A stretch of DNA of 25,803 nucleotides. It comes from a virus (taxonomy: Duplodnaviria > Heunggongvirae > Uroviricota > Caudoviricetes). Shown one piece after another: positions 1,300 through 19,396 of the stretch. A program made the position numbers and the translations under genes. The DNA lies in IMG/VR virus record IMGVR_UViG_3300045988_092979, positions 1 through 25,803 of that record. One strand, 5' to 3'. The notes under the pieces are model-generated. The model saw nothing but the letters and a program-made list of their open reading frames with translations. It did no database searches and was not told the origin of the DNA. Every line of letters starts with the position of its first letter. Positions within the stretch are counted from its first letter, which is position 1.

Positions 1300-1323
1300 G
1301 GACATCGTATGGATCTGGAGTGA

Positions 1324-2349
1324 ATGATGATTGTAAAGGTGATAGACCTTTTTTGTGGTGCTGGCGGATTAACTCATGGTTTGCAACTCGCAGGTCTTGA
1401 TGTCGTTGCTGGTATTGACCTTGAGGGGGAATGTCGATTTCCCTATGAAAAAAACAATAAATCAAAGTTTATTGAGAAAGATATCGCTAAAGTAACCAAA
1501 GAGGAATTACTGAAGCTATATGGTGATGCGTCTATAAAAGTATTGGCTGGATGTGCACCTTGCCAACCTTTTTCAAAATATACTCAAGGAAAAGATAAAG
1601 CGGAAGATAAAAAATGGCCTCTTCTTTATGAGTTCGAGCGTTTAATTCGCGAGGTATCTCCAGAAATTGTAACAATGGAGAACGTGCCTGATGTAACTAA
1701 ACATAAAGTTTATAATGACTTTTATTATTCGTTGTTAGAACTGGGATATTATGTTTGGGCATCAAAGGTTGATTGTGTCGAATATGGAATTCCACAGAAC
1801 CGTTCTCGTCATGTATTGTTAGCCTCAAAGTTGGGGGAGATTGAGTTAGTAAAACGTAATGATGTTATTTTGAAAACTGTTAGGGATGCAATAGGTGGTC
1901 TTCCACCATTAGAAGATGGTCAAACAGATCCAAATGATATATTGCATAGAGCCAGTAAATTAAACTCGATTAATAAAAAAAGAATTATACACTCTATTCC
2001 AGGTGGTACATGGAAGGACTGGCCGGAAGAACTTATTGCTGCTTGTCATATGAAGTCTAGCGGTAAAGGGTATGCTAGCGTATATGGGAGGATGTCTTGG
2101 GATAAGCCAAGCCCGACAATTACAACTCTTTGTTATGGTTTTGGGAATGGTCGTTTTGGCCACCCAGAACAGAACAGAGCTATTTCTCTTAGAGAAGCGG
2201 CTTTGTTGCAAACATTTCCTATGGATTATGTTTTTGTTGAAGAACAGGAAAAGTTTGTTATAAGAAGTATTGGAAAAATGATAGGTAATGCTGTACCAGT
2301 TGAGTTAGGAAAAGTCATTGGGCAATCAATAAAAAATCATTTGAAATAA
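1324..2349 (+). CDS. DNA (cytosine-5)-methyltransferase
   Basis: Canonical C5-MTase motifs in the translation: FCGAGG (motif I, AdoMet binding), PCQPFS (motif IV, catalytic Cys), ENVPD (motif VI), QNRSR (motif VIII), GNAVPV near the C-terminus (motif X). AT-rich relative to the phage backbone by eye. Confidence 0.9.
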   Translation: MMIVKVIDLFCGAGGLTHGLQLAGLDVVAGIDLEGECRFPYEKNNKSKFIEKDIAKVTKEELLKLYGDASIKVLAGCAPCQPFSKYTQGKDKAEDKKWPLLYEFERLIREVSPEIVTMENVPDVTKHKVYNDFYYSLLELGYYVWASKVDCVEYGIPQNRSRHVLLASKLGEIELVKRNDVILKTVRDAIGGLPPLEDGQTDPNDILHRASKLNSINKKRIIHSIPGGTWKDWPEELIAACHMKSSGKGYASVYGRMSWDKPSPTITTLCYGFGNGRFGHPEQNRAISLREAALLQTFPMDYVFVEEQEKFVIRSIGKMIGNAVPVELGKVIGQSIKNHLK

Positions 2350-2355
2350 TAAAAT

Positions 2356-2372
2356 GGCCTGCTTTGCAGGCC
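2356..2372. terminator. bidirectional rho-independent terminator hairpin between convergent genes
   Basis: Perfect 7-bp stem GGCCTGC / GCAGGCC with TTT loop; A-rich on the left (T-run for the minus-strand transcript) and T-rich on the right (TTGTGATTATTTC). Confidence 0.6.
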
Positions 2373-2378
2373 TTGTGA

Positions 2379-3059
2379 TTATTTCTCTAAGTATTCATTA
2401 TTATTTATATAATGTTCTATATTATTCGCGATTGCATCAAGATAGGCTATTACTTCTAATGAAATATTCTCTAAATCCTGATATGAAACATTTTTCCCAA
2501 TCTCAGCAAATGATACATTTCCATGAGATAAATCATTGCGATGCTGTTTAACGGTGGCTAATTTTTCACCATGTTTAGTGTGAGTGTAATCAGAATGGGT
2601 TGAAAATCCATATATTTTCGATTTTTCTTTTATTTCCTCTCTATCAATATTGCCTGAAAATATTTTCTTTTTGTTGAATGTACCATAAGAAATACCACAG
2701 GATATGCCTTTAGTAAGTCCGCCGATTAAATTATCGATGTTAACAGATTCATTTTTTAATCTTTTTAAAATTTCTGATTTTAGGTTTTTTTTAAGTTTAT
2801 CAAACTCTATGTTTCTATCATAAATAGTCTCATGTATAAGGCAGATAGCCTCTCTCATTGTTGATTCAATAAGGTTGTATAATAGTATATACACTGCACC
2901 CTTTAGAGTTTTTCGTGATTGAGATGTAATGGTGAACTTATGTTCTTTATTATCGGATGATATCAATTCCGCACCAGCATGCTCAATAAATTTTAAAAGA
3001 TCTAAATAGGCCAAGATTTCTCCTGACCTTTCGTCAAAATCCTCACGAAAACGATCCAT
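2379..3059 (-). CDS. HEPN-like predicted RNase/effector protein (R-x4-H motif); second gene of a two-gene operon
   Basis: 226 aa; C-terminal region contains KQHRNDLSHG, matching the HEPN R-x4-H signature. Start ATG 3059-3057 preceded by GAGGA; separated by one nucleotide from the stop of the upstream DUF262 gene. AT-rich. Confidence 0.6.
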   Translation of the reverse strand: MDRFREDFDERSGEILAYLDLLKFIEHAGAELISSDNKEHKFTITSQSRKTLKGAVYILLYNLIESTMREAICLIHETIYDRNIEFDKLKKNLKSEILKRLKNESVNIDNLIGGLTKGISCGISYGTFNKKKIFSGNIDREEIKEKSKIYGFSTHSDYTHTKHGEKLATVKQHRNDLSHGNVSFAEIGKNVSYQDLENISLEVIAYLDAIANNIEHYINNNEYLEK

Positions 3060-3060
3060 G

Positions 3061-4203
3061 TTAATCCTCTAATAGTTTGTCTCGCACATATTCAATTCGT
3101 TCAATTACCTTCACGCGACTATTTGCTCCGTCGGAGGTGGTTAATTGTTTGAATTCTTCTGAGCTTAGCCAATCTAAGTTTTTGGGGACAAGGTTAGGCT
3201 CTAGACGTAATGCGAGTGCAGCACCAACAGCGAGAGATTCAAATCTAACTCGAGGTGTGGATTTTGCAGTGATAGTTTTCTTAAAGCCTGCTGGGAAATG
3301 GTTTTCAACGAAAGACAGAACATTCGAAAACTCTTCTTTCATTGAGTTTTGTTCAGCTTCATCTATATCACTCTTTTCCTTCATGTAATCATTCAGAAAA
3401 TCACGCACGGAATGATCAAATTTCTTATATTTATCTAAGTAAGCAAAGAATCTCAATGTAAATTCTAACCGTTCATCTCGTTTTTCTTTAGCCTCAGATA
3501 AAGGTGCTAACTCCTTAAATTTAGATATTGTCGAGCATGGCTTAATAACCTGCGTATATAAATTTGTTGAGCCAAGTTCTGAACCTTTACGAACTTCCAT
3601 ATCTTTCAATATGTCACTACCAGAGTTAATTCGCTCAAAAAGATCCCTGCGGGTTTCTTCATTGCATTTAGAACTCAACTCTATAACACGCACAGGAATT
3701 CTCATGAAACGGCGTTGGCGTGATAATGGTAAATCTTGGAATCTGAAACCATTAAGAGAACTTAAAGATTTCAGATCTTGTAAAACTAATTCATTGTGGA
3801 TAAACGCATGTATGGTTCTAACACGCTGTGAGCCATCAACAATTTCAATCCGTCCATCTAAATCGGGATCTTCTGAAAAGACATCAGCTGTAAATATATA
3901 TGGTATAGGGAAGCCCAAAATTAAAGACTCTATTAATCTTGATTGTCTCTTTTCATTCCAAACAAAGTCCCTTTGATAATCAGGAACAAAGAGTTCGTTG
4001 GTATCATCCTCTAACCCGTTATGATATTTATTAACTAATAACTCAACAGTAAATTCTTTGGTCTCAAAGTCAACATCCTTTTGCTCTGCGCGAATTTGCT
4101 CTTCAGCCTCTTGTTTTATAACTTCTAGCTGAGCTAGGAGTTCTGCCCTTTTTTTGGCATTATCTTCATGTTCTAGTTGAGATTTTAACCCAATAATATC
4201 CAT
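3061..4203 (-). CDS. DUF262 (ParB/sulfiredoxin-like NTP-binding) domain protein, GmrSD N-terminal-domain-like, without a fused DUF1524/HNH nuclease domain
   Basis: 380 aa; FVPDYQRDFVW and IEIVDGSQRV match the two hallmark DUF262 motifs (YQRxYxW and DGQQR). Start ATG 4203-4201 preceded by AAGGGA. AT-rich, coiled-coil-like N-terminus. Confidence 0.7.
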   Translation of the reverse strand: MDIIGLKSQLEHEDNAKKRAELLAQLEVIKQEAEEQIRAEQKDVDFETKEFTVELLVNKYHNGLEDDTNELFVPDYQRDFVWNEKRQSRLIESLILGFPIPYIFTADVFSEDPDLDGRIEIVDGSQRVRTIHAFIHNELVLQDLKSLSSLNGFRFQDLPLSRQRRFMRIPVRVIELSSKCNEETRRDLFERINSGSDILKDMEVRKGSELGSTNLYTQVIKPCSTISKFKELAPLSEAKEKRDERLEFTLRFFAYLDKYKKFDHSVRDFLNDYMKEKSDIDEAEQNSMKEEFSNVLSFVENHFPAGFKKTITAKSTPRVRFESLAVGAALALRLEPNLVPKNLDWLSSEEFKQLTTSDGANSRVKVIERIEYVRDKLLED

Positions 4204-4277
4204 ATCCAGATCCCTTAATGATTGTTATAAATGAAAACAGATAGCATACCGCATAGATCAGGAAAAATGCCATCGCA

Positions 4278-4576: not shown

Positions 4577-5611
4577 TCAGCCGTTGTCTGTGTCCAGTGA
4601 GTAGTTTTTAAAGCGGATGACCTCCTGACCGAGCCAGCCGTTTATTTCCCGAATCCTGTCCTGTAACGGGATAAGCTCATTGCGGACAAAGACCTTTGCC
4701 ACTTTCTCAATATCACCCAGCGACCCGACGTTCTCCGGCTTGCCTCCCATCAACTGAAAGGGGATGCGGTGCGCGTCCAGCAGGTCAGCGGCGCTGGCTT
4801 TTTTGATATTAAAAAAATCGTCCTTCGTTGCCACTTCACTGAGCGGGATAATTTTAATGCCGTCGGCTTTCCCCTGTGGGGCATAGAGAAACAGGTTTTT
4901 AAAGTTGTTGCGGCCTTTCGACTTAACCATGTTTTCGCGAAGCATTTCGATATCGTTGCGATCCTGCACGGCATCGGTAACGTACATGATGTATCCGGCA
5001 TGCGCGCCGTTTTCGTAATACTTGCGGCGGAACAGTGTGGCCGACTCATTCAGCCAGGCAGAGTTAAGGGCGCTGAGATATTCCGGCAGGCCGTACAGCT
5101 CCTGATTAATATCCGGCTCCAGCAGGTGAAACACGGAGCCGGGCGCGAAGGCTGTCGGCTCGTTGAAGGACGGCACCCACCAGTAAACATCCTCCTCCAC
5201 GCCACGGCGGGTATATTTTGCCGGTGAGGTTTCCAGTCTGATGACCTTACCGGTGGTGCTGTAACGCTTTTCCAGAAACGCATTACCGAACACCAGAAAA
5301 TCCAGCACAAAGCGGCTGAAATCCTGTTGCGAAAGCCACGGGTGCGGAATAAACGTTGAAGCCAGAATATTACGTTTGACGTAAATCGGTGAACTGTGAT
5401 GCACGGCAGCACGCAGGCTTTTTGCCAGACCGGTAAAGCTGACCGGTGGCTCATACCATCTGCCGTTACTGATGCACTCGATGTAATCCAGAATGTCACG
5501 GCGGTCGAGTACCGGCACCGGTTCACCAAAGGTGAATGCCTCCATTTTCGGGGCGCTGGCGGTCATTTTTTTTGCCGCTGGTCGCGGTGTTTTCCCTTTT
5601 TTCTTGCTCAT
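4577..5611 (-). CDS. Q: portal (capsid portal vertex) protein
   Basis: 344 aa, the size and position of P2 gpQ; basic N-terminus MSKKKGKTPRPAAKK. Start overlaps the stop of P by 1 nt (translational coupling). Confidence 0.9.
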   Translation of the reverse strand: MSKKKGKTPRPAAKKMTASAPKMEAFTFGEPVPVLDRRDILDYIECISNGRWYEPPVSFTGLAKSLRAAVHHSSPIYVKRNILASTFIPHPWLSQQDFSRFVLDFLVFGNAFLEKRYSTTGKVIRLETSPAKYTRRGVEEDVYWWVPSFNEPTAFAPGSVFHLLEPDINQELYGLPEYLSALNSAWLNESATLFRRKYYENGAHAGYIMYVTDAVQDRNDIEMLRENMVKSKGRNNFKNLFLYAPQGKADGIKIIPLSEVATKDDFFNIKKASAADLLDAHRIPFQLMGGKPENVGSLGDIEKVAKVFVRNELIPLQDRIREINGWLGQEVIRFKNYSLDTDNG

Positions 5612-7383
5612 CAGTAAAACTCCAGAATGGTGGATGTCAGCGGAGTGCTGATACCCGCGGTGAGTGGCTCATTTAACAGGGCGTGCATGGTCGCCCAGGC
5701 GAGGTCGGCGTGGCTGGCTTCCTCGCTGCGGCTGGCCTCATAGGTGGCGCTGCGTCCGCTGCTGGTCATGGTCTTGCGGATAGCCATAAACGAGCTGGTG
5801 ATGTCGGTGGCGCTGACGTCATATTCCAGACAGCCACGGCGGATGACGTCTTTTGCCTTGAGCACCATTGCGGTTTTCATTTCCGGCGTGTAGCGGATGT
5901 CGCGCGCGGCGGGATAGAACGAGCGCACGAGCTGGAACACGCCGACACCGAGGCCGGTGGCATCAATACCGATGTATTCGACGTTATATTTTTCGGTGAG
6001 TTTGCGGATGGATTCAGCCTGGGTGGCAAAGTCCATGCCTTTCCACTGGTGACGCTCAAGTATTCTGAATTTGCCACCGGCCACCACCGGCGGTGCCAGC
6101 ACCACGCATCCGGCGCTGTCGCCACGGTGTGACGGGTCGTAACCAATCCAGACCGGGCGGGAGCCGAACGGATTCGCGGCAAACGGCGCATAGTCTTCCC
6201 ATTCTTCCAGCGTGTCGACCATGCAGCGTTGCAGCTCCTCGAACGGGAACACCGACGCCTTGTCGTCAACAAATTCACACATGAACAGGTTTTTAAAATC
6301 GTCGGCGCTGTTTTCACGTTTGAGCTGCTCAATGTCGAACAGCGTGCAGCCGCCTTTCAGGGCGTCCTCAATGGTGACAATCTGCCGCCACTGGCCGTCC
6401 GCACAGAGAAGACCTCCGGCAAGGGCGTTATGACTGACGTCGATTTCCACGCGTTCGGCGGCGCTGGCGCGTCCCCGGTTGAACAGTTCACCCGACCAGA
6501 ACGGGTAGGCGTCGTGCGCCAGCGTGGACGGGGTGGAGAAATAGGTCGAGCGCAGGTGACTCTGTGAGGCCATACCTGATGCCACCTTACGCAGTACCTG
6601 AAAATTCGGGATCCAGAAAATCTCGTCGACGTACAGGTCGCCGTTATGGCTCTGTGCGGTGTTGGAGTTGGTGCCGAGAAAAATCAGTTTTGCGCCGTTA
6701 TTGCCCAGGACAATCGGGTCACCGGTCAGGTCAACGTCAACCAGCCGGGCAAAGGCGATGATGTATTCGCGGAACACATACGCCTGCGTTTTACTGGCCG
6801 ACAGAAAAATCTGGTTATGACCGGTTTTCAGGGCGCGCAGCAGCGCCTCGCGGGAAAAATAAAACGTCGCGCCAATCTGGCGGGATTTCAGGATATCGCG
6901 GATGCGGTGCTCAAGCCCGGCGCGATACCAGTGCAACTGATATTCGAAAGACTGCTCAAAGAAAATCTGCTCCAGCTTTTCGATGGCCTCGTCACTGAAA
7001 AAATTCTTTTTCGGTTTGCGACGCCCGCCTTTGTTGCGGTTAGCGACGTTCGGATTAAGGTCTGCCTCGTTGCCGGTCTGACTGTAGCGGTTTACCCGTG
7101 CCAGTCGTTCAATCTGGCGTCCCAGCAGGTCAATTTCCTTGAAGTCACCGCCGGTTTTCTGCGGTTTGATGATGAGCTGGGTCAGTCGCGCTTCCAGACT
7201 CATTTCGACACGGCTGATGGGGGCAACGCTGTCCCAGCCGTCGCGCTGTTTCCAGCTCTGCACCGTCGGACGTTTCATCTGCAACATGGCGGCAATCTGC
7301 GGCACGGAAAACCCCTGCCAGTACAGCAGCGCCGCCTGACGACGCGGGTCGTGTAAAAGAGTGGTGTCTGTGGTGATGGTCAT
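5611..7383 (-). CDS. P: terminase large (ATPase) subunit
   Basis: Start chosen at ATG 7383 (MTITTDTTLLHDPRRQAALLYWQGF...), with GAGGT RBS upstream; the track ORF extends 10 codons further. Size about 590 aa and position match P2 gpP. Confidence 0.9.
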   Translation of the reverse strand: MTITTDTTLLHDPRRQAALLYWQGFSVPQIAAMLQMKRPTVQSWKQRDGWDSVAPISRVEMSLEARLTQLIIKPQKTGGDFKEIDLLGRQIERLARVNRYSQTGNEADLNPNVANRNKGGRRKPKKNFFSDEAIEKLEQIFFEQSFEYQLHWYRAGLEHRIRDILKSRQIGATFYFSREALLRALKTGHNQIFLSASKTQAYVFREYIIAFARLVDVDLTGDPIVLGNNGAKLIFLGTNSNTAQSHNGDLYVDEIFWIPNFQVLRKVASGMASQSHLRSTYFSTPSTLAHDAYPFWSGELFNRGRASAAERVEIDVSHNALAGGLLCADGQWRQIVTIEDALKGGCTLFDIEQLKRENSADDFKNLFMCEFVDDKASVFPFEELQRCMVDTLEEWEDYAPFAANPFGSRPVWIGYDPSHRGDSAGCVVLAPPVVAGGKFRILERHQWKGMDFATQAESIRKLTEKYNVEYIGIDATGLGVGVFQLVRSFYPAARDIRYTPEMKTAMVLKAKDVIRRGCLEYDVSATDITSSFMAIRKTMTSSGRSATYEASRSEEASHADLAWATMHALLNEPLTAGISTPLTSTILEFY

Positions 7384-7556
7384 GAATACCTCGCCGTGAT
7401 GAATACACGGCAAGGCTACTGAGTCGCGCCCCGCGATTCGCTAAGGTGCTGTTGTGTCAGTGATAAGCCATCCGGGACTGATGGCGGAGGATGCGCATCG
7501 TCGGGAAACTGATGCCGACATGTGACTCCTCTAATCACTATTCAGGACTCCTGACA
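7384..7556. promoter_or_regulatory. divergent late promoter region between P (minus) and O (plus)
   Basis: 173-bp intergenic gap between divergently transcribed operons, the position of the P2 PP/PO late promoters. Specific promoter elements not verified. Confidence 0.5.
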
Positions 7557-8411
7557 ATGGCAAAAAAAGTCTCAAAATTCTTTCGTATCGGCGTTGAGGG
7601 TGACACCTGTGACGGGCGTGTCATCAGTGCGCAGGATATTCAGGAAATGGCCGAAACCTTTGACCCGCGAGTCTATGGTTGCCGCATTAACCTGGAACAT
7701 CTGCGCGGCATCCTGCCTGACGGCATTTTTAAACGTTATGGCGATGTGGTCGAACTGAAGGCCGAAAAGATTGATGACGATTCGGCGCTGAAAGGCAAAT
7801 GGGCGCTGTTTGCGAAAATCACCCCGACCGATGACCTTATCGCGATGAACAAGGCCGCGCAGAAGGTCTATACCTCAATGGAAATTCAGCCGAACTTTGC
7901 CAACACCGGCAAATGTTATCTGGTGGGGCTGGCCGTCACCGATGACCCGGCAAGCCTCGGCACGGAATACCTGGAATTCTGCCGCACGGCAAAACACAAC
8001 CCCCTGAACCGCTTCAAATTAAGCCCTGAAAACCTGATTTCAGTGGCAACGCCTGTTGAGCTGGAATTTGAAGACCTGCCTGAAACCGTGTTCACCGCCC
8101 TGACCGAAAAGGTGAAATCCATTTTTGGCCGCAAACAGGCCAGCGATGACGCCCGTCTGAATGACGTGCATGAAGCGGTGACCGCTGTTGCTGAACATGT
8201 GCAGGAAAAACTGAGTGCCACTGAGCAGCGCCTCGCTGAGATGGAAACCGCCTTTTCCGCACTTAAGCAGGATGTAGCTGACAGGGCGGATGAAACCAGC
8301 CAGGCATTCACCCGACTGAAAAACAGTCTCGACCACACCGAAAGTCTGACCCAGCAGCGCCGCAGCAAGGCCACCGGTGGTGGCGGTGACGCCCTGATGA
8401 CGAACTGCTGA
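7557..8411 (+). CDS. O: capsid scaffolding protein
   Basis: Start at ATG 7557 (MAKKVSKFFRIGVEGD...), giving 284 aa as for P2 gpO; the track ORF starts at an upstream in-frame codon. Confidence 0.9.
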   Translation: MAKKVSKFFRIGVEGDTCDGRVISAQDIQEMAETFDPRVYGCRINLEHLRGILPDGIFKRYGDVVELKAEKIDDDSALKGKWALFAKITPTDDLIAMNKAAQKVYTSMEIQPNFANTGKCYLVGLAVTDDPASLGTEYLEFCRTAKHNPLNRFKLSPENLISVATPVELEFEDLPETVFTALTEKVKSIFGRKQASDDARLNDVHEAVTAVAEHVQEKLSATEQRLAEMETAFSALKQDVADRADETSQAFTRLKNSLDHTESLTQQRRSKATGGGGDALMTNC

Positions 8412-15716: not shown

Positions 15717-16320
15717 TTCGCGACTGCTGCCGACCGGCTCATCACCGCTTGAAGTCGCCGCCGCAAGAGCCTGTGCGGAAATTGAAAAAACGCCGGTCAG
15801 TATTCGTGAGCTGTGGAACCCGGATACCTGTCCGGCAAATCTGCTGCCGTGGCTGGCGTGGTCATTTTCGGTTGACCGCTGGGATGATAAGTGGCCGGAA
15901 GCGACAAAACGCGCTGTTATCCGCGATGCGTATTTCATTCACTGCCATAAGGGCACTATTGGTGCGATTCGCCGTGTGGTGGAGCCGCTCGGCTATCTGA
16001 TTGAGGTGAGGGAGTGGTGGCAGCTCAACGAGGAGCCGGGGACGTTCCGCATCGTTGTTGGCGTGCTTGAGCAGGGTATTACCGAGGAAATGTATCAGGA
16101 GCTGGAGCGTCTCGTTGCTGATGCAAAACCTGCAAGCCGCCATCTGACGGGACTGGCTATCAGTTTAAGTACAACCGGCAACATTTTTGCCGGTGCAGGA
16201 TGCTATCACGGCGACGCCCTGACGGTTTATCCCTACACCCCGGAGGCCATTATTGTCGGAGGGGATTATTTCCCGGCCTCGGCCATTCATTTAATTGATA
16301 ACCTGAGAGTAAACGCATGA
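15709..16320 (+). CDS. I: baseplate/tail protein I
   Basis: Follows J with an 8-nt overlap. 203 aa from this ATG (P2 gpI is smaller by recall, so the true start may be downstream). Confidence 0.75.
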   Translation: MSDSRLLPTGSSPLEVAAARACAEIEKTPVSIRELWNPDTCPANLLPWLAWSFSVDRWDDKWPEATKRAVIRDAYFIHCHKGTIGAIRRVVEPLGYLIEVREWWQLNEEPGTFRIVVGVLEQGITEEMYQELERLVADAKPASRHLTGLAISLSTTGNIFAGAGCYHGDALTVYPYTPEAIIVGGDYFPASAIHLIDNLRVNA

Positions 16321-17834
16321 CAGTGAAATACTACGCCATTCTGACTAATCAGGGCGCAGCACGGCTGGCTAACGCGACGATGCTCGGCAGTAAGCTGAAT
16401 CTGACGCAAATGGCCGTTGGTGATGCGAATGGTGTCTTGCCGACACCAGACCCGGCACAGACAAAACTGATTAACCAGAAACGCATCGCGCCGCTGAATC
16501 TTCTGAGTGTTGACCCGAACAACCAGAGCCAGATTATTGCGGAGCAAATCATCCCTGAGAACGAGGGCGGATTCTGGATCCGTGAGATTGGGCTTTATGA
16601 TGATGAAGGCGTACTCATTGCGGTGGCGAACTGCCCGGAAACGTACAAACCGCAGTTGCAGGAAGGCAGCGGTCGTACCCAGACTATCCGCATGATTCTG
16701 GTTGTCACGAATACCGAAGCTATCACGCTGAAAATCGACCCGTCGGTGGTACTGGCGACCCGTAAATACGTGGATGATGAAGTCCTGGAATTAAGGCTGT
16801 ATGTGGATGACCAGATGAGAAACCACATTGCCGCACAGGATCCTCATACCCAGTATGCACAGAAACATAATCCGACATTTACCGGAGAACCAAAAGCGCC
16901 GACGCCTGCCGCAGGAAATAACACCACGCGGATTGCGACCACTGAGTTTGTTCAGGCCGCTATTACCGCTCTGATTAACGGTGCGCCAGCCACGCTGGAC
17001 ACACTGAAAGAAATTGCCGCAGCCATTAACAATGACCCGAAATTCAGTACCACCATTAACAATGCGCTGTCAGGTAAGCAGCCACTGGATGAGACGCTGA
17101 CTCATTTGAGTGGGAAGGATGTTGCCGGTCTTCTTGCATACCTTGGTATTAAAGACGCATCAACAACACAGGTGGGTTTAGTCCGGTTAACCTCATCGCG
17201 GGTATCGGGTGCAGAGGATATTGCAGCCACAGCTAATGCTGTCGCGCAAAACTATACGGACATAAAATCTTTGCAAAACAAAACTCAGGATTCAACTACG
17301 ACACAGAAAGGAATTGTTCAACTTACATCATCAAGGGTATCCGAATCTGAAACGCTTGCTGCAACAGCAAAAGCGGCAGCGATGAATTATGCGGATATTG
17401 TAGCTCTGCAAGGCAAGACTAATGATGCAACCACTACAAACAAGGGAATTATCCGCGTATCTGATTCCAGAACATCAACAGAATCTGGTGTTGCTGCATC
17501 ATCACTTGCTGCATCACAAAACTATTCAGATATGAAAGGGTTGTTTGGTCAATGCGGAATGAAATCTAGAAATCTCGGTGTCGTATACACCAACAGCCAG
17601 TCTTTCGCCATATTTGTAAGCGTCAATGCGGTGCTGTCTGACGGTAGTTCATTTCTGAGCGCCAACGTTAATGTGGATGGTAATTCGGCTAATTTTCGCG
17701 GCTCTCAGACAACAAATCTTGCAGGGCAAAGAGCAACTATCGCATTCATGGTTCCTGCCGGTGCGACCTATATTGTGCAGCAGTTTTCAGGAACAGTGTC
17801 AGATGTTACCTGGGTAGAGGTGGATAAAAAATGA
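16317..17834 (+). CDS. H: tail fibre protein H; constant part to 17144, currently expressed variable C-terminal part 17145-17834
   Basis: 505 aa; N-terminal two-thirds in the canonical H position; the distal part contains three tandem ~45-aa repeats and is AT-rich. A hix-like crossover site lies in frame at 17131-17156. Confidence 0.85.
   Translation: MTVKYYAILTNQGAARLANATMLGSKLNLTQMAVGDANGVLPTPDPAQTKLINQKRIAPLNLLSVDPNNQSQIIAEQIIPENEGGFWIREIGLYDDEGVLIAVANCPETYKPQLQEGSGRTQTIRMILVVTNTEAITLKIDPSVVLATRKYVDDEVLELRLYVDDQMRNHIAAQDPHTQYAQKHNPTFTGEPKAPTPAAGNNTTRIATTEFVQAAITALINGAPATLDTLKEIAAAINNDPKFSTTINNALSGKQPLDETLTHLSGKDVAGLLAYLGIKDASTTQVGLVRLTSSRVSGAEDIAATANAVAQNYTDIKSLQNKTQDSTTTQKGIVQLTSSRVSESETLAATAKAAAMNYADIVALQGKTNDATTTNKGIIRVSDSRTSTESGVAASSLAASQNYSDMKGLFGQCGMKSRNLGVVYTNSQSFAIFVSVNAVLSDGSSFLSANVNVDGNSANFRGSQTTNLAGQRATIAFMVPAGATYIVQQFSGTVSDVTWVEVDKK
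17131..17156. other. hix/gix-like 26-bp inversion crossover site (left), inside H
   Basis: TTCTTGCATACC-TT-GGTATTAAAGAC: 12-bp half-sites around a 2-bp core; left half matches the Salmonella hixL half-site TTCTTGAAAACC at 10/12 (from memory). Core TT is complementary to core AA of the right site. Confidence 0.6.
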
Positions 17835-18199
17835 TAACAATGATGAAGTATTACAAAGATGAAAATAACGTCGTATATGCCTACGATGCGTATGGCACAC
17901 AGGATGCTTTTATCAAAGAAGGGCTTGTGCCAATCACCAGAAGTGAGGCTATGGCAATTATTAATCCCCCACCGACTCATGAACAACTCATCCAGGCTGC
18001 TGAAAATGAGCGACAGCGATTACTGTCCGCCGCTGATGCAATTATGCTCGACTGGCGCACAGAGCTGATGCTGGGTGAAATCAGCGATGCCAACAGAGCT
18101 AAACTTTCGGCGTGGCTTTTATATAAGAATCAGGTTAAGGCTGTTGATGTAACAACCGACCCTGAGCATGTTAACTGGCCTGTCATCCCGGAACTTTAG
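17831..18199 (+). CDS. G: tail fibre assembly chaperone (Tfa)
   Basis: 122 aa immediately after H with ATGA overlap; ends in a WPxxP-type motif (NWPVIPEL) typical of Tfa proteins. AT-rich. Confidence 0.7.
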   Translation: MITMMKYYKDENNVVYAYDAYGTQDAFIKEGLVPITRSEAMAIINPPPTHEQLIQAAENERQRLLSAADAIMLDWRTELMLGEISDANRAKLSAWLLYKNQVKAVDVTTDPEHVNWPVIPEL

Positions 18200-18205
18200 A
18201 CCATA

Positions 18206-18250
18206 CTGGTCTTGCTACATCAATGCGCATCAGCAAGACCAGCTATTTTC
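18206..18250 (+). terminator. stem-loop/terminator after the tail-fibre assembly gene
   Basis: 11-bp perfect inverted repeat CTGGTCTTGCT / AGCAAGACCAG (18206-18216 and 18232-18242) with a 15-nt loop, followed by CTATTTTC. Confidence 0.5.
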
Positions 18251-18301
18251 AAACTAAGCAACATAGCCCTCCGCTACTCCTCCTGTTCGAAACGAACGTT
18301 T

Positions 18302-18733
18302 TCATGCCGCCCTTACGATATAATTAAACGCAATGTTACGAGGACGAATGGTTACATAATTAACCCCATCACCTCGTGAAGGCCCTGCAAATGAAAAACG
18401 GGAAAATCCTGGTTGGTTAGAAACAATTTGGTCATAGTTATTGATTGAATGACCAGACCCAATGTCGAAATTACCTCCGTAATGAGAAAAACTTGTACCA
18501 TCCTGCCCTGAAAGCAGGGTACGTCCCGCATCAATCCCGCGCCCATCATCCCAGCCACGGATAAATTCACCGCGTAAATCCGGTAATTTATTGGTGGGGT
18601 AGGCTTTTGCCAGTTTGGGATACATTTCAGAAGAAAATGCTGCACCATTGCATTTTAGCCAGCCCGTTGGTGGTGTTTCTAAGGGCCACGGAACGGGCAC
18701 ACCAACAGGCAGTGCAGAGCCTTCCCCCAAACC
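18302..18733 (-). CDS. silent, start-less alternative tail-fibre C-terminal cassette in inverted orientation
   Basis: Translation (…GWLKCNGAAFSSEMYPKLAKAYPTNKLPDLRGEFIRGWDDGRGID…) is a classic P2 H / Mu S-type fibre C-terminus. Its 5' end coincides with the right crossover site, so the track ATG at 18775 is not a real start. Confidence 0.7.
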   Translation of the reverse strand, partial: GLGEGSALPVGVPVPWPLETPPTGWLKCNGAAFSSEMYPKLAKAYPTNKLPDLRGEFIRGWDDGRGIDAGRTLLSGQDGTSFSHYGGNFDIGSGHSINNYDQIVSNQPGFSRFSFAGPSRGDGVNYVTIRPRNIAFNYIVRAA

Positions 18734-18747
18734 AACGTTTATGAAAA
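18722..18747. other. hix/gix-like 26-bp inversion crossover site (right)
   Basis: TTCCCCCAAACC-AA-CGTTTATGAAAA: 19/26 identity to hixL TTCTTGAAAACCAAGGTTTTTGATAA (from memory), conserved AAACC..GTTT inner positions, 56 bp upstream of the invertase start. Confidence 0.6.
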
Positions 18748-18802
18748 TGCAGAGACAACGGGTAACTGGCATCATCTCCGGTTTTTATTCAGGGGGATGC
18801 TC

Positions 18803-19396
18803 ATGCTTATTGGCTATGTACGCGTGTCAACAAATGACCAGAACACGGAATTGCAGCGTAACGCGCTGGAGTGCGCAGGATGTGAGCTGATTTTTGAGGA
18901 TAAAATCAGCGGCACTAAGTCCGACCGACCGGGACTGAAAAAACTGCTCAGGACATTATCGGAGGGGGATACACTGGTGGTCTGGAAGCTGGACAGGCTG
19001 GGGCGTAGTATGCGGCATCTGGTCATTCTGGTTGAGGAGCTGCGCGAACGCGGCGTTAATTTTCGCAGCCTGACGGATGCTATTGATACCAGCACGCCGA
19101 TGGGGCGTTTTTTCTTTCATGTGATGGGTGCCCTGGCTGAAATGGAACGAGAACTCATTGTCGAGCGGACACGCGCCGGACTGGAAGCGACCAGAGCTAA
19201 AGGTCGTATTGGTGGCAGACGTCCGAAGCTCACCGCGAGTGAGTGGGAACAGGCAGGACGGTTGCTGGCTGCGGGTGAATCACGTCAACGCGTGGCGCTG
19301 ATTTTTGATATTGGCCTGTCCACGCTCTATAAAAAATTCCCCTCATCAGCGACAAAGAATAAATTGTGTCATCCCTTAGCCAACCGGGACAAATAG
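18803..19396 (+). CDS. site-specific DNA invertase, serine recombinase of the Hin/Gin/Cin/Pin family
   Basis: N-terminus MLIGYVRVSTNDQ with the catalytic serine, and near colinear similarity to Gin as I recall it (…LVVWKLDRLGRSM…GRFFFHVMGALAEMERELI…GRIGGRRPKL…). GGGGG RBS upstream; the track ORF starts two codons earlier. Confidence 0.9.
   Translation: MLIGYVRVSTNDQNTELQRNALECAGCELIFEDKISGTKSDRPGLKKLLRTLSEGDTLVVWKLDRLGRSMRHLVILVEELRERGVNFRSLTDAIDTSTPMGRFFFHVMGALAEMERELIVERTRAGLEATRAKGRIGGRRPKLTASEWEQAGRLLAAGESRQRVALIFDIGLSTLYKKFPSSATKNKLCHPLANRDK

Follow-up and report, generated by a model that had tools for sequence, protein, structure and literature searches.

The late region of a P2-like prophage of Escherichia coli raised the question of whether its tail-fibre gene, H, has a single product or whether part of the gene can be inverted to give a second one. 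The window, which is the whole 25,803-nt stretch of DNA that was analysed, showed 95-98.5% identity to E. coli P2-family prophages over its first 12 kb. Its ORFs, their Pfam families and identical loci gave the P2 tail gene order V-W-J-I-H-tfa ... FI-FII-E-T-U-D. This order and the PF12571 fibre N-terminus identified a P2-like (Peduovirus-type) tail module, in agreement with the original prediction, which had a switch embedded in such a module. We conclude, with a probability of about 93%, that the locus is a working tail-fibre switch with two states, belonging to the Fis/enhancer-dependent serine invertases (Pin/Gin/Cin/Hin) and located between the H-tfa and FI operons. The architecture of the sites, the reading frame, the family of the invertase and the occurrence of both orientations with the breakpoint at the core were all established directly. 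The features of the fibre locus were as follows.

16317-17142, + strand: constant N-terminal part of H (codons 1-275 and the first base of the core-holding Leu codon; ORF 16317-17834).
17131-17156, + strand: left site (hixL/gixL-like), TTCTTGCATACC-TT-GGTATTAAAGAC, core TT at 17143-17144, outer half good (11.7 bits), inner half weak (5.7 bits).
17143-18735, no strand: invertible segment, 1,593 bp; loci L014, L107 and L108 correspond to the window with exactly this stretch reverse-complemented.
17145-17834, + strand: expressed variable C-terminus of H (GIKDASTTQ...), three Phage_fiber_2 repeats (PF03406, E 7.5e-14) and a tip.
17831-18199, + strand: tail-fibre assembly protein gene tfa (122 aa), part of the expressed cassette (PF02413 Caudo_TAP, E 1.4e-18).
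18302-18733, - strand: silent alternative C-terminal cassette (GLGEGSALPVGVPVPWP...RAA*), tail-collar domain (PF07484 Collar, E 1.1e-14) and tip, promoterless and without its own tfa.
18722-18747, + strand: right site (hixR/gixR-like), TTCCCCCAAACC-AA-CGTTTATGAAAA, core AA at 18734-18735, top match in the window (31.1 bits).

Recombination sites and reading frames of H

Two 26-bp hix/gix sites in inverted orientation, with TT and AA cores, had been predicted, and both were confirmed with the coordinates and sequences given above. They were imperfect palindromes with matching 2-bp cores, the inner half of the left one being weak. The 25.8-kb window was scored with a matrix derived from 44 independent half-sites of unrelated loci; the two sites had the hix/gix architecture of the family and ranked first (right, 31.1 bits) and second (left, 17.5 bits), the next best 26-mer scoring 4.9 bits. 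The score of either site was matched by 0 of 100 shuffles. Additionally, the pattern TTCTNNCAWACCWWSGT, with at most one mismatch, matched only these two sites in the window, where 0.03 matches were expected. Against the strict textbook consensus TTNTCNNAAACCNNGGTTTNNGANAA the left site had five mismatches, as many as an unrelated 26-mer at 17908; this tie was settled by the related-loci matrix. A generic repeat finder missed the pair because the arms, in inverted register, have only five identical bases (TTGGT/ACCAA). The same core rule held in 79 related loci, with TT on the left and AA on the right, and TC/GA in Mu and L060. In the 79 loci the conserved invertase-proximal site lay 53-55 nt before the invertase ATG. 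The left site of relatives, at the same place in H, reads TTCTCGCATACC-TT-GGTTTGGGAGAA; in the window the inner half, which is carried by the expressed cassette, is the poor half-site GGTATTAAAGAC (5.7 bits) and may slow recombination.

Residues 1-150 of H matched Phage_tail_fib (PF12571, E 1.4e-62), and H shared 97-99% identity with other P2-like H genes up to the site. The left core had been placed in a CTT (Leu) codon of H, and the TT at 17143-17144 did form bases 2 and 3 of that codon. The junction predicted for the flipped state was also in frame: H currently reads ...LLAYLGIKDASTTQ, and reverse-complementing 17143-18735 gave a protein of 419 aa that reads ...LLAYLGLGEGSALPVGVPVPWP... across the joint. 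The exchange of C-termini on the constant N-terminus left uninterrupted frames of 505 aa and 419 aa, each running to a stop codon. A reading of 17145-18199 as a single translated frame was discarded, since two genes lie in that stretch. The predicted flipped product, H', was found already deposited as an E. coli phage tail protein (P0002, 419 aa, 100% identity and coverage). Three-cassette P2-like prophages of Enterobacteriaceae have a 99%-identical fibre of 419 aa as their expressed form. Since no chaperone gene goes with the collar cassette, H' can be regarded only as a putative fibre of the P2 virion.

The invertase and its predicted enhancer

Two features outside the segment bear on how it would be inverted.

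18803-19396, + strand: DNA invertase of 197 aa, Pin/Gin/Cin/Hin subclass of small serine recombinases (PF00239 Resolvase, E 9.5e-52; PF02796 HTH_7, E 1.1e-12).
18824-18888, + strand: predicted Fis-dependent recombinational enhancer inside the invertase gene, with Fis-core-like 15-mers around 18824-18839 and 18873-18887.

A Gin-like serine recombinase had been noted 56 bp past the right site, and the invertase ATG at 18803 lies 56 nt after 18747, with 55 bases between them. No sigma-70-like promoter candidate for the invertase was found in this 55-bp spacer at the scan threshold. The protein was intact and full length, with the organisation of a small serine recombinase (an N-terminal catalytic domain with the active-site Ser and a C-terminal helix-turn-helix), and showed 86% identity to e14 PinE and 77% identity to Mu Gin. 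It aligned with the Gin structure 3uj3 over residues 1-182 (E 6e-94), and Ser9, R7, R42, D64, R65 and R68 were invariant with Gin and PinE. In Hin, the invertase subclass is marked by K47, K/R48 and K/R51 and by the Fis-contacting residues Q151, R154 and L155 (PMC3798978). The window invertase, in which the numbering is that of Hin minus 1, had K46, K47 and R50 in the basic helix-B patch and Q150, R153 and L154 in the Fis-contact patch.

The enhancer was tentatively placed by homology to hin. Across 19 diverged invertase genes, conservation at third codon positions was 0.93 for codons 8-12 (0.95-1.00 for codons 9-13) and 0.82 for codons 24-29. The background value was 0.63 and never exceeded 0.80, and the intervening codons 14-22 gave 0.59. 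Synonymous change was low at nt 25-39 and nt 73-93 of the gene, which are ~47-48 bp apart and ~97 bp from the core of the right site. Both blocks agree with the spacing and distance described for the hin enhancer (PMC3798978). The pattern fits a bipartite Fis enhancer, so that an embedded element of this kind would be visible from synonymous-site conservation alone; the first trough of synonymous variation could partly reflect gene-start constraints.

From these parts a mechanism can be proposed in which inversion is probably Fis-dependent. Dimers of the invertase would bind the 26-bp sites in H and just upstream of the invertase gene, and both sites would be synapsed on the Fis-bound enhancer within the first ~90 bp of the invertase coding sequence. 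Cleavage at the central TT/AA dinucleotides and strand rotation would then invert 17143-18735. In the orientation of the window, H would be made as the 505-aa fibre, with the Phage_fiber_2 repeats at its C-terminus, followed by the co-oriented assembly chaperone. In the flipped orientation the same 276 N-terminal residues would be joined to a 143-residue tail-collar tip, giving the 419-aa fibre, and the first tip and its chaperone would become antisense and silent. The two tips presumably recognise different receptors, and inversion would be expected to alter host range.

Natural copies in both orientations and rival explanations

Public E. coli assemblies contained the same prophage, 2 SNPs apart in 10.6 kb, with the stretch 17143-18735, and no more, reverse-complemented, and these natural flipped copies bear out the Gin/Hin-type invertible tail-fibre switch that had been proposed. 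Compared with the predicted flip, the two SNPs, both far upstream, were the only differences. Six loci had the orientation of the window (L012, L013, L016, L110, L113 and L115), whereas L014/L107 and L108 were flipped. Alignment of the window to L014, L107 and L108 showed that breakpoints placed outside 17143-17148 add mismatches; the breakpoint was therefore confined to the five shared bases TTGGT/ACCAA, which include the predicted core, as expected for exchange at the core dinucleotide. Identical copies of the 505-aa H were encoded by 18 contigs, and identical copies of the 419-aa H' by three. The exact prophage was located only via exact-protein look-ups; among 5,426 complete E. coli genomes and phage records, no record held >62% of either the whole region or the predicted flipped junction in one place. 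Across the 79 related loci, collar-type cassettes lay beside H or beside the invertase in about equal numbers. For P2-like prophages, experiments in EPEC have demonstrated inversion (PMC4272514), and in Fels-2 it has been inferred (PMC7953296).

The two database states could in principle stem from rare events, and the locus could then be a frozen relic, with leftover sites and cassettes, no useful inversion rate and orientations that go back to one or a few old events. The weak inner half-site of the left site would agree with this, as would the low number of flipped contigs (3 of ~21), the loss of the second cassette in the related prophages L111, L114, L003 and L001, the truncated invertases of relatives (165 aa in L111, only an HTH remnant in L005) and the lack of a detected invertase promoter in the scan. 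The number of SNPs between the two orientations was, however, at the level found within one orientation (1-3 SNPs), and the inversion was therefore very recent. The window also retained a full-length invertase with all catalytic and Fis-contact residues and the enhancer-like synonymous conservation, and we consider a relic very unlikely; inversion probably still proceeds at a useful rate.

A second explanation accepts the switch and places its main gain with the lysogen, in which a fibre protein expressed from the prophage would mask a surface receptor and block other phages. This effect has been shown in the closely related e14 system, in which StfE2, the P-segment product made after PinQ-driven inversion, masks the receptor and blocks other phages (PMC12529663). 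The 86% identity of the window invertase to PinE and the single nucleotide that separates the right site from the e14 site lend the comparison some force. H, however, lies in an apparently complete P2 late region, the tail operon of which is normally silent in a lysogen, and the sequence gave no sign of lysogenic H expression. It is thus improbable that this is the main gain, and a benefit to the lysogen would add to the host-range role of the switch rather than replace it. General (RecA-type) recombination and assembly error were rejected as sources of the flipped copies, since an inverted repeat with five identical bases is far too short for homologous recombination or for confusion of an assembler, the flipped state had been assembled twice independently (in one NCBI genome and in the Logan assembly of another run) and the breakpoint coincided with the crossover dinucleotide of the family.

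The collar cassette and known invertible systems

The arrangement of the two cassettes raised the further question of how the collar cassette came to lie beside the invertase. Two features lie at or near its downstream end.

18207-18243, no strand: hairpin lying where the two cassettes converge, with a perfect stem of 11 bp that the fold lengthens to 13-14 pairs.
18283-18308, + strand: third site, hybrid and degenerate, CTGTTCGAAACG-AA-CGTTTTCATGCC, where the two cassette modules meet; the stop codon of the minus-strand cassette lies within it.

The collar cassette showed likeness to the collar regions of T4 gp37 and gp12 and had 99% identity to cassettes on ~95-99-kb E. coli plasmids, the homology beginning at the site. 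The single tfa of the locus (17831-18199) belongs to the expressed cassette; no Caudo_TAP ORF (U/U'-type assembly gene) followed the collar cassette, and downstream of it lay the scar site and the hairpin. Folding of 18195-18310 gave -24.9 kcal/mol (z = -2.55) for the + strand and -37.7 kcal/mol (z = -2.82) for the - strand. The hairpin is possibly a terminator after tfa, as a CTATTTTC tail is found on the + strand only.

The left half of the third site was that of the invertase-proximal site in the single-cassette relatives L111 and L114. Its right half, when reverse-complemented, was the inter-cassette half-site GGCATGAAAACG found in the P1-like plasmid L098 and in the three-cassette P2-like prophage L100; the L100 copy begins AGCATG. 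The half-sites scored 1.9 and -4.2 bits and the whole site about -2.3 bits, and it is probably an inactive scar. The product expected from recombination between the left and third sites, ACCTTCGTTTCGAACAGGAGG, had no matches in viral and metagenome contigs, where the control (the unrearranged cassette end) had none in viral contigs, none in GTDB genomes and two in metagenomes, so that the lack of matches says little about recombination there. A multi-inversion (shufflon-like, p15B Min-like) reading was rejected, as there were fewer than three usable sites; the third-best 26-mer scored 4.9 bits and the hybrid site about -2.3 bits.

Invertase-catalysed insertion would yield exactly the present arrangement: a collar cassette, cut out as a circle between two directly oriented sites of a multi-cassette array (that of L098 or L100, for example), would enter a single-cassette prophage (for example L111) at its invertase-proximal site. 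At the joints 18283-18308 and 18722-18747, each of the four half-sites matched the proposed donors and recipient. The + cassette was similarly joined at ACC-TT-GGT to the different constant parts of unrelated fibre genes in Mu-like and other prophages, and an identical Tfa protein was present in Mu-like and P2-like prophages. We tentatively suggest that the sites could serve as an integron-like capture point, moving receptor-binding tips among P1-like plasmids and Mu-like and P2-like prophages. The reverse event (a deletion) or recombination in the few shared bases are alternatives to such a capture.

For annotation, the H locus should be recorded as a phase-variable fibre gene that gives two products, and the minus-strand ORF of 157 aa should be listed as a cassette rather than a gene; beyond correct annotation the importance of the locus is small. 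In phage typing or therapy, lysates from this prophage would be expected to mix two receptor specificities. Additionally, a collar tip without a chaperone gene bears on the question of which fibre tips require Tfa, and cassette boundaries match the crossover cores to the base in P2-like, Mu-like and P1-like elements.

Among the closest known systems is the e14 P-segment of E. coli K-12 (PinE), in which inversion has been shown experimentally (PMC4272514, PMC12529663). The proximal site of e14, TTCTCCCAAACC-AA-CGTTTATGAAAA, differs from the right site by 1 nt and is at an equal distance from the ATG, and one cassette likewise begins GLGE.... The e14 element, however, is lambdoid and defective and carries two stf/tfa pairs, whereas the host element of the present switch is a P2-like prophage and one cassette lacks tfa.

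The P2-like invertible fibre regions of the EPEC E2348/69 prophages, Salmonella Fels-2 (fin) and Escherichia phage pro483, of which the EPEC and Fels-2 inversions were already on record, occupy the same position between H/tfa and FI. The constant part of H is 94-99% identical and the site reads TTCTCGCATACC-TT-GG.... The pro483 type has two fibre/tfa pairs with both cassettes starting GLGE, whereas the window combines a GIKD-type cassette, common to Mu-like prophages, with a chaperone-less collar cassette; this combination was found in one piece in none of the 5,426 complete E. coli genomes. The multi-cassette (p15B Min-like) regions of P1-like phage-plasmids, which carry the 99%-identical collar cassette, resemble the window in that this cassette is short, lacks tfa and has its stop codon inside the next site. 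These regions and the three-cassette P2-like prophages have 4-6 usable sites and many isomers, whereas in the window two sites are usable and a third is a degenerate scar.

The locus had also been predicted to be of the Mu G-segment/P1 C-segment type. This held for the in-frame exchange of C-termini but not for the symmetry of those segments, the cassettes of the window being asymmetrical and the minus-strand one lacking a tail-fibre assembly gene. The layout is that of Mu G (Gin) and P1 C (Cin): the N-terminus of the fibre is constant, one site lies within the fibre gene, the alternative C-terminus is inverted and has no promoter, and the invertase is encoded immediately beyond the segment, with an enhancer, predicted here, in the 5' end of its gene. 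The G segment (3 kb) and the P1 C segment are larger and symmetrical (Sv-U/U'-Sv'), with long perfect inverted repeats (34 bp in Mu), whereas the window segment is 1.6 kb and asymmetrical and its sites have only 5 bp in common. The core is TC in Mu and TT in the window. With these differences, the switch is an ordinary example of a kind known since phages Mu and P1.

Gene layout and recombination sites

Analysis of ORFs and Pfam domains revealed the window to be the late region of a P2-like prophage, with the gene order replication gene end, cargo island, Q-P-O-N-M-L, lysis genes, R-S-V-W-J-I-H and then FI-FII-E-T-U-D. The first 12 kb showed 95–98.5% identity to E. coli P2-family prophages, and exact matches to the proteins of the locus carry E. 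coli names at NCBI. The cargo island (1300–4250, by homology to 1327–4203 of the related locus L106) lies between the replication and portal genes; in an E. coli prophage with 98.5% identity it is annotated with a DNA cytosine methyltransferase, a HEPN-like nuclease (MAE_28990/MAE_18760 family) and a DUF262 protein, suggesting a defence-type insertion at a variable region of P2. The features of the switch were as follows.

16317–17834: tail-fibre gene H, 505 aa, N-terminus PF12571, C-terminal repeats PF03406
17831–18199: tail-fibre assembly (chaperone) gene tfa, overlapping H, PF02413
18207–18243: hairpin, 11-bp perfect stem, fold extending to 13–14 pairs, 3′ of the coding sequence in both states
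18283–18308: degenerate third site, CTGTTCGAAACG-AA-CGTTTTCATGCC
18302–18775: minus strand, open frame of the collar cassette, the useful part from 18733 downwards being tail-collar domain PF07484
18803–19396: serine recombinase, 197 aa, PF00239 + PF02796
19456: start of the sheath gene

The expressed C-terminus of H (17160–17530) consists of three Phage_fiber_2 repeats of approximately 40 residues (TTQxGxVxLTSSRVS...AATAxAxxxNYxDI), also visible as weak direct and inverted DNA repeats.

The original prediction had placed 26-bp sites at 17131–17156 (L) and 18722–18747 (R), with an in-frame exchange of cassettes between them. Both sequences checked out exactly, the TT core of L lies within a CTT codon of H, and reverse-complementing 17143–18735 kept the frame, giving a 419-aa protein reading ...LLAYLGLGEGSALPVGVPVPWP.... 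L and R resembled each other weakly, with just 5 identical bases in inverted register, which explains why a generic repeat search of the window missed the pair; R had 2 mismatches to the textbook consensus and L had 5. Because of this weak similarity and the poor fit of L, a matrix was built of 44 distinct half-sites from 79 related viral loci plus Mu, e14 and pro483, excluding the window's own prophage (the nearest invertase genes among these loci shared 93–99% nucleotide identity with it). R (31.1 bits) and L (17.5 bits) ranked first and second among 25,778 window positions, bearing out the proposed hix/gix-type architecture. The third-best position scored 4.9 bits, no position in 100 shuffles attained the score of L, and a simple degenerate pattern matched twice in the window against 0.03 expected.

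In the relatives the fibre-gene site always had a TT core and the site 53–55 nt before the invertase ATG an AA core, the exceptions being Mu and one further locus (TC/GA). The inner half-site was GGTTTGGGAGAA (Gly-Leu-Gly-Glu) in both cassettes of nearly all relatives; that of the window's expressed cassette was GGTATTAAAGAC, which is weak (5.7 bits). In Mu-like, P2-like and other prophages this cassette follows three distinct constant parts, the junction in each falling precisely at ACC-TT-GGT. The rare TTCCCCC half-site of the window recurred in just one other locus, a viral contig (L022, IMGVR_UViG_2693429599_000001, 1392–2385) in which the H constant part is inverted relative to the invertase and two AA-core sites are in direct orientation; misassembly across the switch could explain this contig, as could a rearrangement of another kind.

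Both orientations in public assemblies

A look-up of the exact invertase protein recovered the same prophage from several assemblies. Most copies (L012, L013, L016, L110, L113 and L115) had the window arrangement. L014 (GCA_034326785.1) encoded a 419-aa Collar-domain fibre followed by tfa and a 243-aa Phage_fiber_2 frame on the minus strand. Base-level comparison showed L014 to be the window with 17143–18735 reverse-complemented, except for two SNPs far upstream. Moving the breakpoint outside 17143–17148 produced extra mismatches, so the exchange took place within the shared bases TTGGT/ACCAA, where the TT/AA core had been predicted. An identical flipped structure was present in the Logan assembly of an independent run (SRR30325256), and the predicted 419-aa protein matched a deposited E. 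coli protein (P0002) with 100% identity and coverage. Among the contigs read, 18 had the exact 505-aa form and 3 the exact 419-aa form.

The isomers differed by 2 SNPs in 10.6 kb and same-orientation copies by 1–3. As the isomers were no more divergent than copies of one orientation and share too short an identity at the sites, the sequences indicate that the inversion between window-type and L014-type copies is recent and site-specific. Assembly error was rejected because 5 identical bases cannot mislead an assembler, and homologous recombination because they are insufficient for it.

In one metagenome assembly (sample ERZ27238326) the prophage was split over two contigs (L015 and L112) inside the collar cassette, at window positions ~18414–18456; the assembly graph may have collapsed there owing to a near-identical cassette carried by a second replicon of the sample.

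The invertase and a predicted Fis enhancer

The recombinase beyond the right site is Gin-like, as predicted, with 77% identity to Mu Gin and 86% to e14 PinE, and it matched the sequence of the Gin crystal structure (E 6e-94). The active-site Ser9 and conserved arginines were present. Certain residues are specific to Fis/enhancer-dependent invertases (McLean et al., PMC3798978); of these, the recombinase has the basic helix-B patch (K46, K47, R50, equivalent to Hin 47, 48, 51) and the Fis-contact patch (Q150, R153, L154, equivalent to Hin 151, 154, 155).

A Fis enhancer had been suggested within ~150 bp of the start of the gene. Variation at synonymous positions was measured across 19 invertase genes differing mutually by >5% in nucleotide sequence. 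The mean pairwise synonymous difference was 0.49, falling to 0.23 around codons 3–14 and 0.26 around codons 23–32, with 0.49–0.53 in between. Third positions were 95–100% conserved at codons 9–13 (TCAACAAATGACCAG) and 79–95% at codons 25–31, and no 5-codon window beyond codon 40 was as conserved as these two blocks in the 19 genes. The blocks are ~47–48 bp apart, with ~97 bp separating the first from the right crossover. For comparison, the hin enhancer spans 65 bp with a Fis site at each end, centres 47 bp apart, ~100 bp from the hix site (PMC3798978). The two blocks are thus observed, and we infer from them, as the expected trace of an embedded bipartite enhancer, a predicted enhancer at ~18824–18888; gene-start constraints could contribute to the first trough.

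Cassette asymmetry, proposed working and comparison with known systems

The expressed cassette has its own assembly chaperone and the collar cassette has none. This asymmetry is not unique. A 99% identical collar cassette was found in five-cassette, single-tfa arrays on ~95–99-kb E. coli plasmids with P1-type genes, and in three-cassette P2-like prophages of Enterobacteriaceae the expressed form was a 99% identical 419-aa fibre. One such array, on the P1-like E. coli plasmid p1337c (L098, NZ_JBUBJF010000004.1, 5001–7957), has sites at 5001, 5440, 5879, 7460 and 7932, and every short collar cassette has its stop codon within the site that follows.

Five P2-like relatives (L111, L114, L003, L006 and L001) had the same plus-strand cassette and tfa and no second cassette, the cassette end being fused directly to the invertase-proximal half-site (CTGTTCGAAACG-AA-CGTTTATGAAAA; 4467–4492 in L111, where the recombinase call is 165 aa only). 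Since a flip would truncate H (...YLRFEQEE*), these would be either on/off switches or decayed switches. Two Mu-like prophages with an identical 122-aa Tfa (L005 and L010, 6345–6560) had a 71-aa HTH_7-only ORF directly downstream, apparently what remains of a lost invertase.

In its left half the third site equals the invertase-proximal site of L111 and L114; the right half is GGCATGAAAACG in reverse complement, GGCATGAAAACG being the half-site that contains the collar cassette stop codon in L098 (AGCATGAAAACG in the three-cassette P2-like prophage L100). The half-sites scored poorly (1.9 and −4.2 bits), and no recombination product at this position was found in public contigs, very few of which are informative. 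We read the third site as a probable scar at a crossover core joining two modules.

In the proposed working, V-W-J-I-H transcription would run through the H constant part into whichever cassette faces it, and the invertase, whose own gene lies outside the segment, would occasionally flip 17143–18735. The window orientation would yield the 505-aa fibre and Tfa; the other would yield the 419-aa collar-tipped fibre and no Tfa from this locus. The hairpin may act as a terminator, at least in the former state, where it is followed by a T-rich tail. On the model of Mu, P1 and carotovoricin, each tip is expected to bind a different receptor, which would make a lysate a bet-hedging mixture. An effect at the level of the lysogen, as reported for e14 StfE2 (PMC12529663), is conceivable but receives no support from the present data.

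The locus shows each defining feature of a Pin/Gin-type invertase switch that sequence analysis can test, with the enhancer as a predicted element. The description of a Mu G/P1 C-type switch in a P2 tail module holds for the Pin/Gin-type features and the P2-like setting, but not for the layout, as the Mu G and P1 C segments are symmetrical with two chaperones. Min-like systems have three or more usable sites, which the window locus does not. Phage pro483 shares the H constant part, sites and invertase of the window prophage. Published examples of invertible fibre regions in P2-like prophages exist: EPEC E2348/69 has two such loci, with coexisting orientation variants detected by sequencing (PMC4272514), and in Fels-2 a fibre inversion adjoins fin (PMC7953296). 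Public assemblies contain the window's exact prophage in both orientations, generically named. What is mildly new is limited to the modularity of the cassettes, exact to the base, among P1-like, Mu-like and P2-like elements; this modularity fits, without proving, invertase-mediated cassette capture. The finding is correct, and the window locus is an ordinary further example of a Pin/Gin-type switch.
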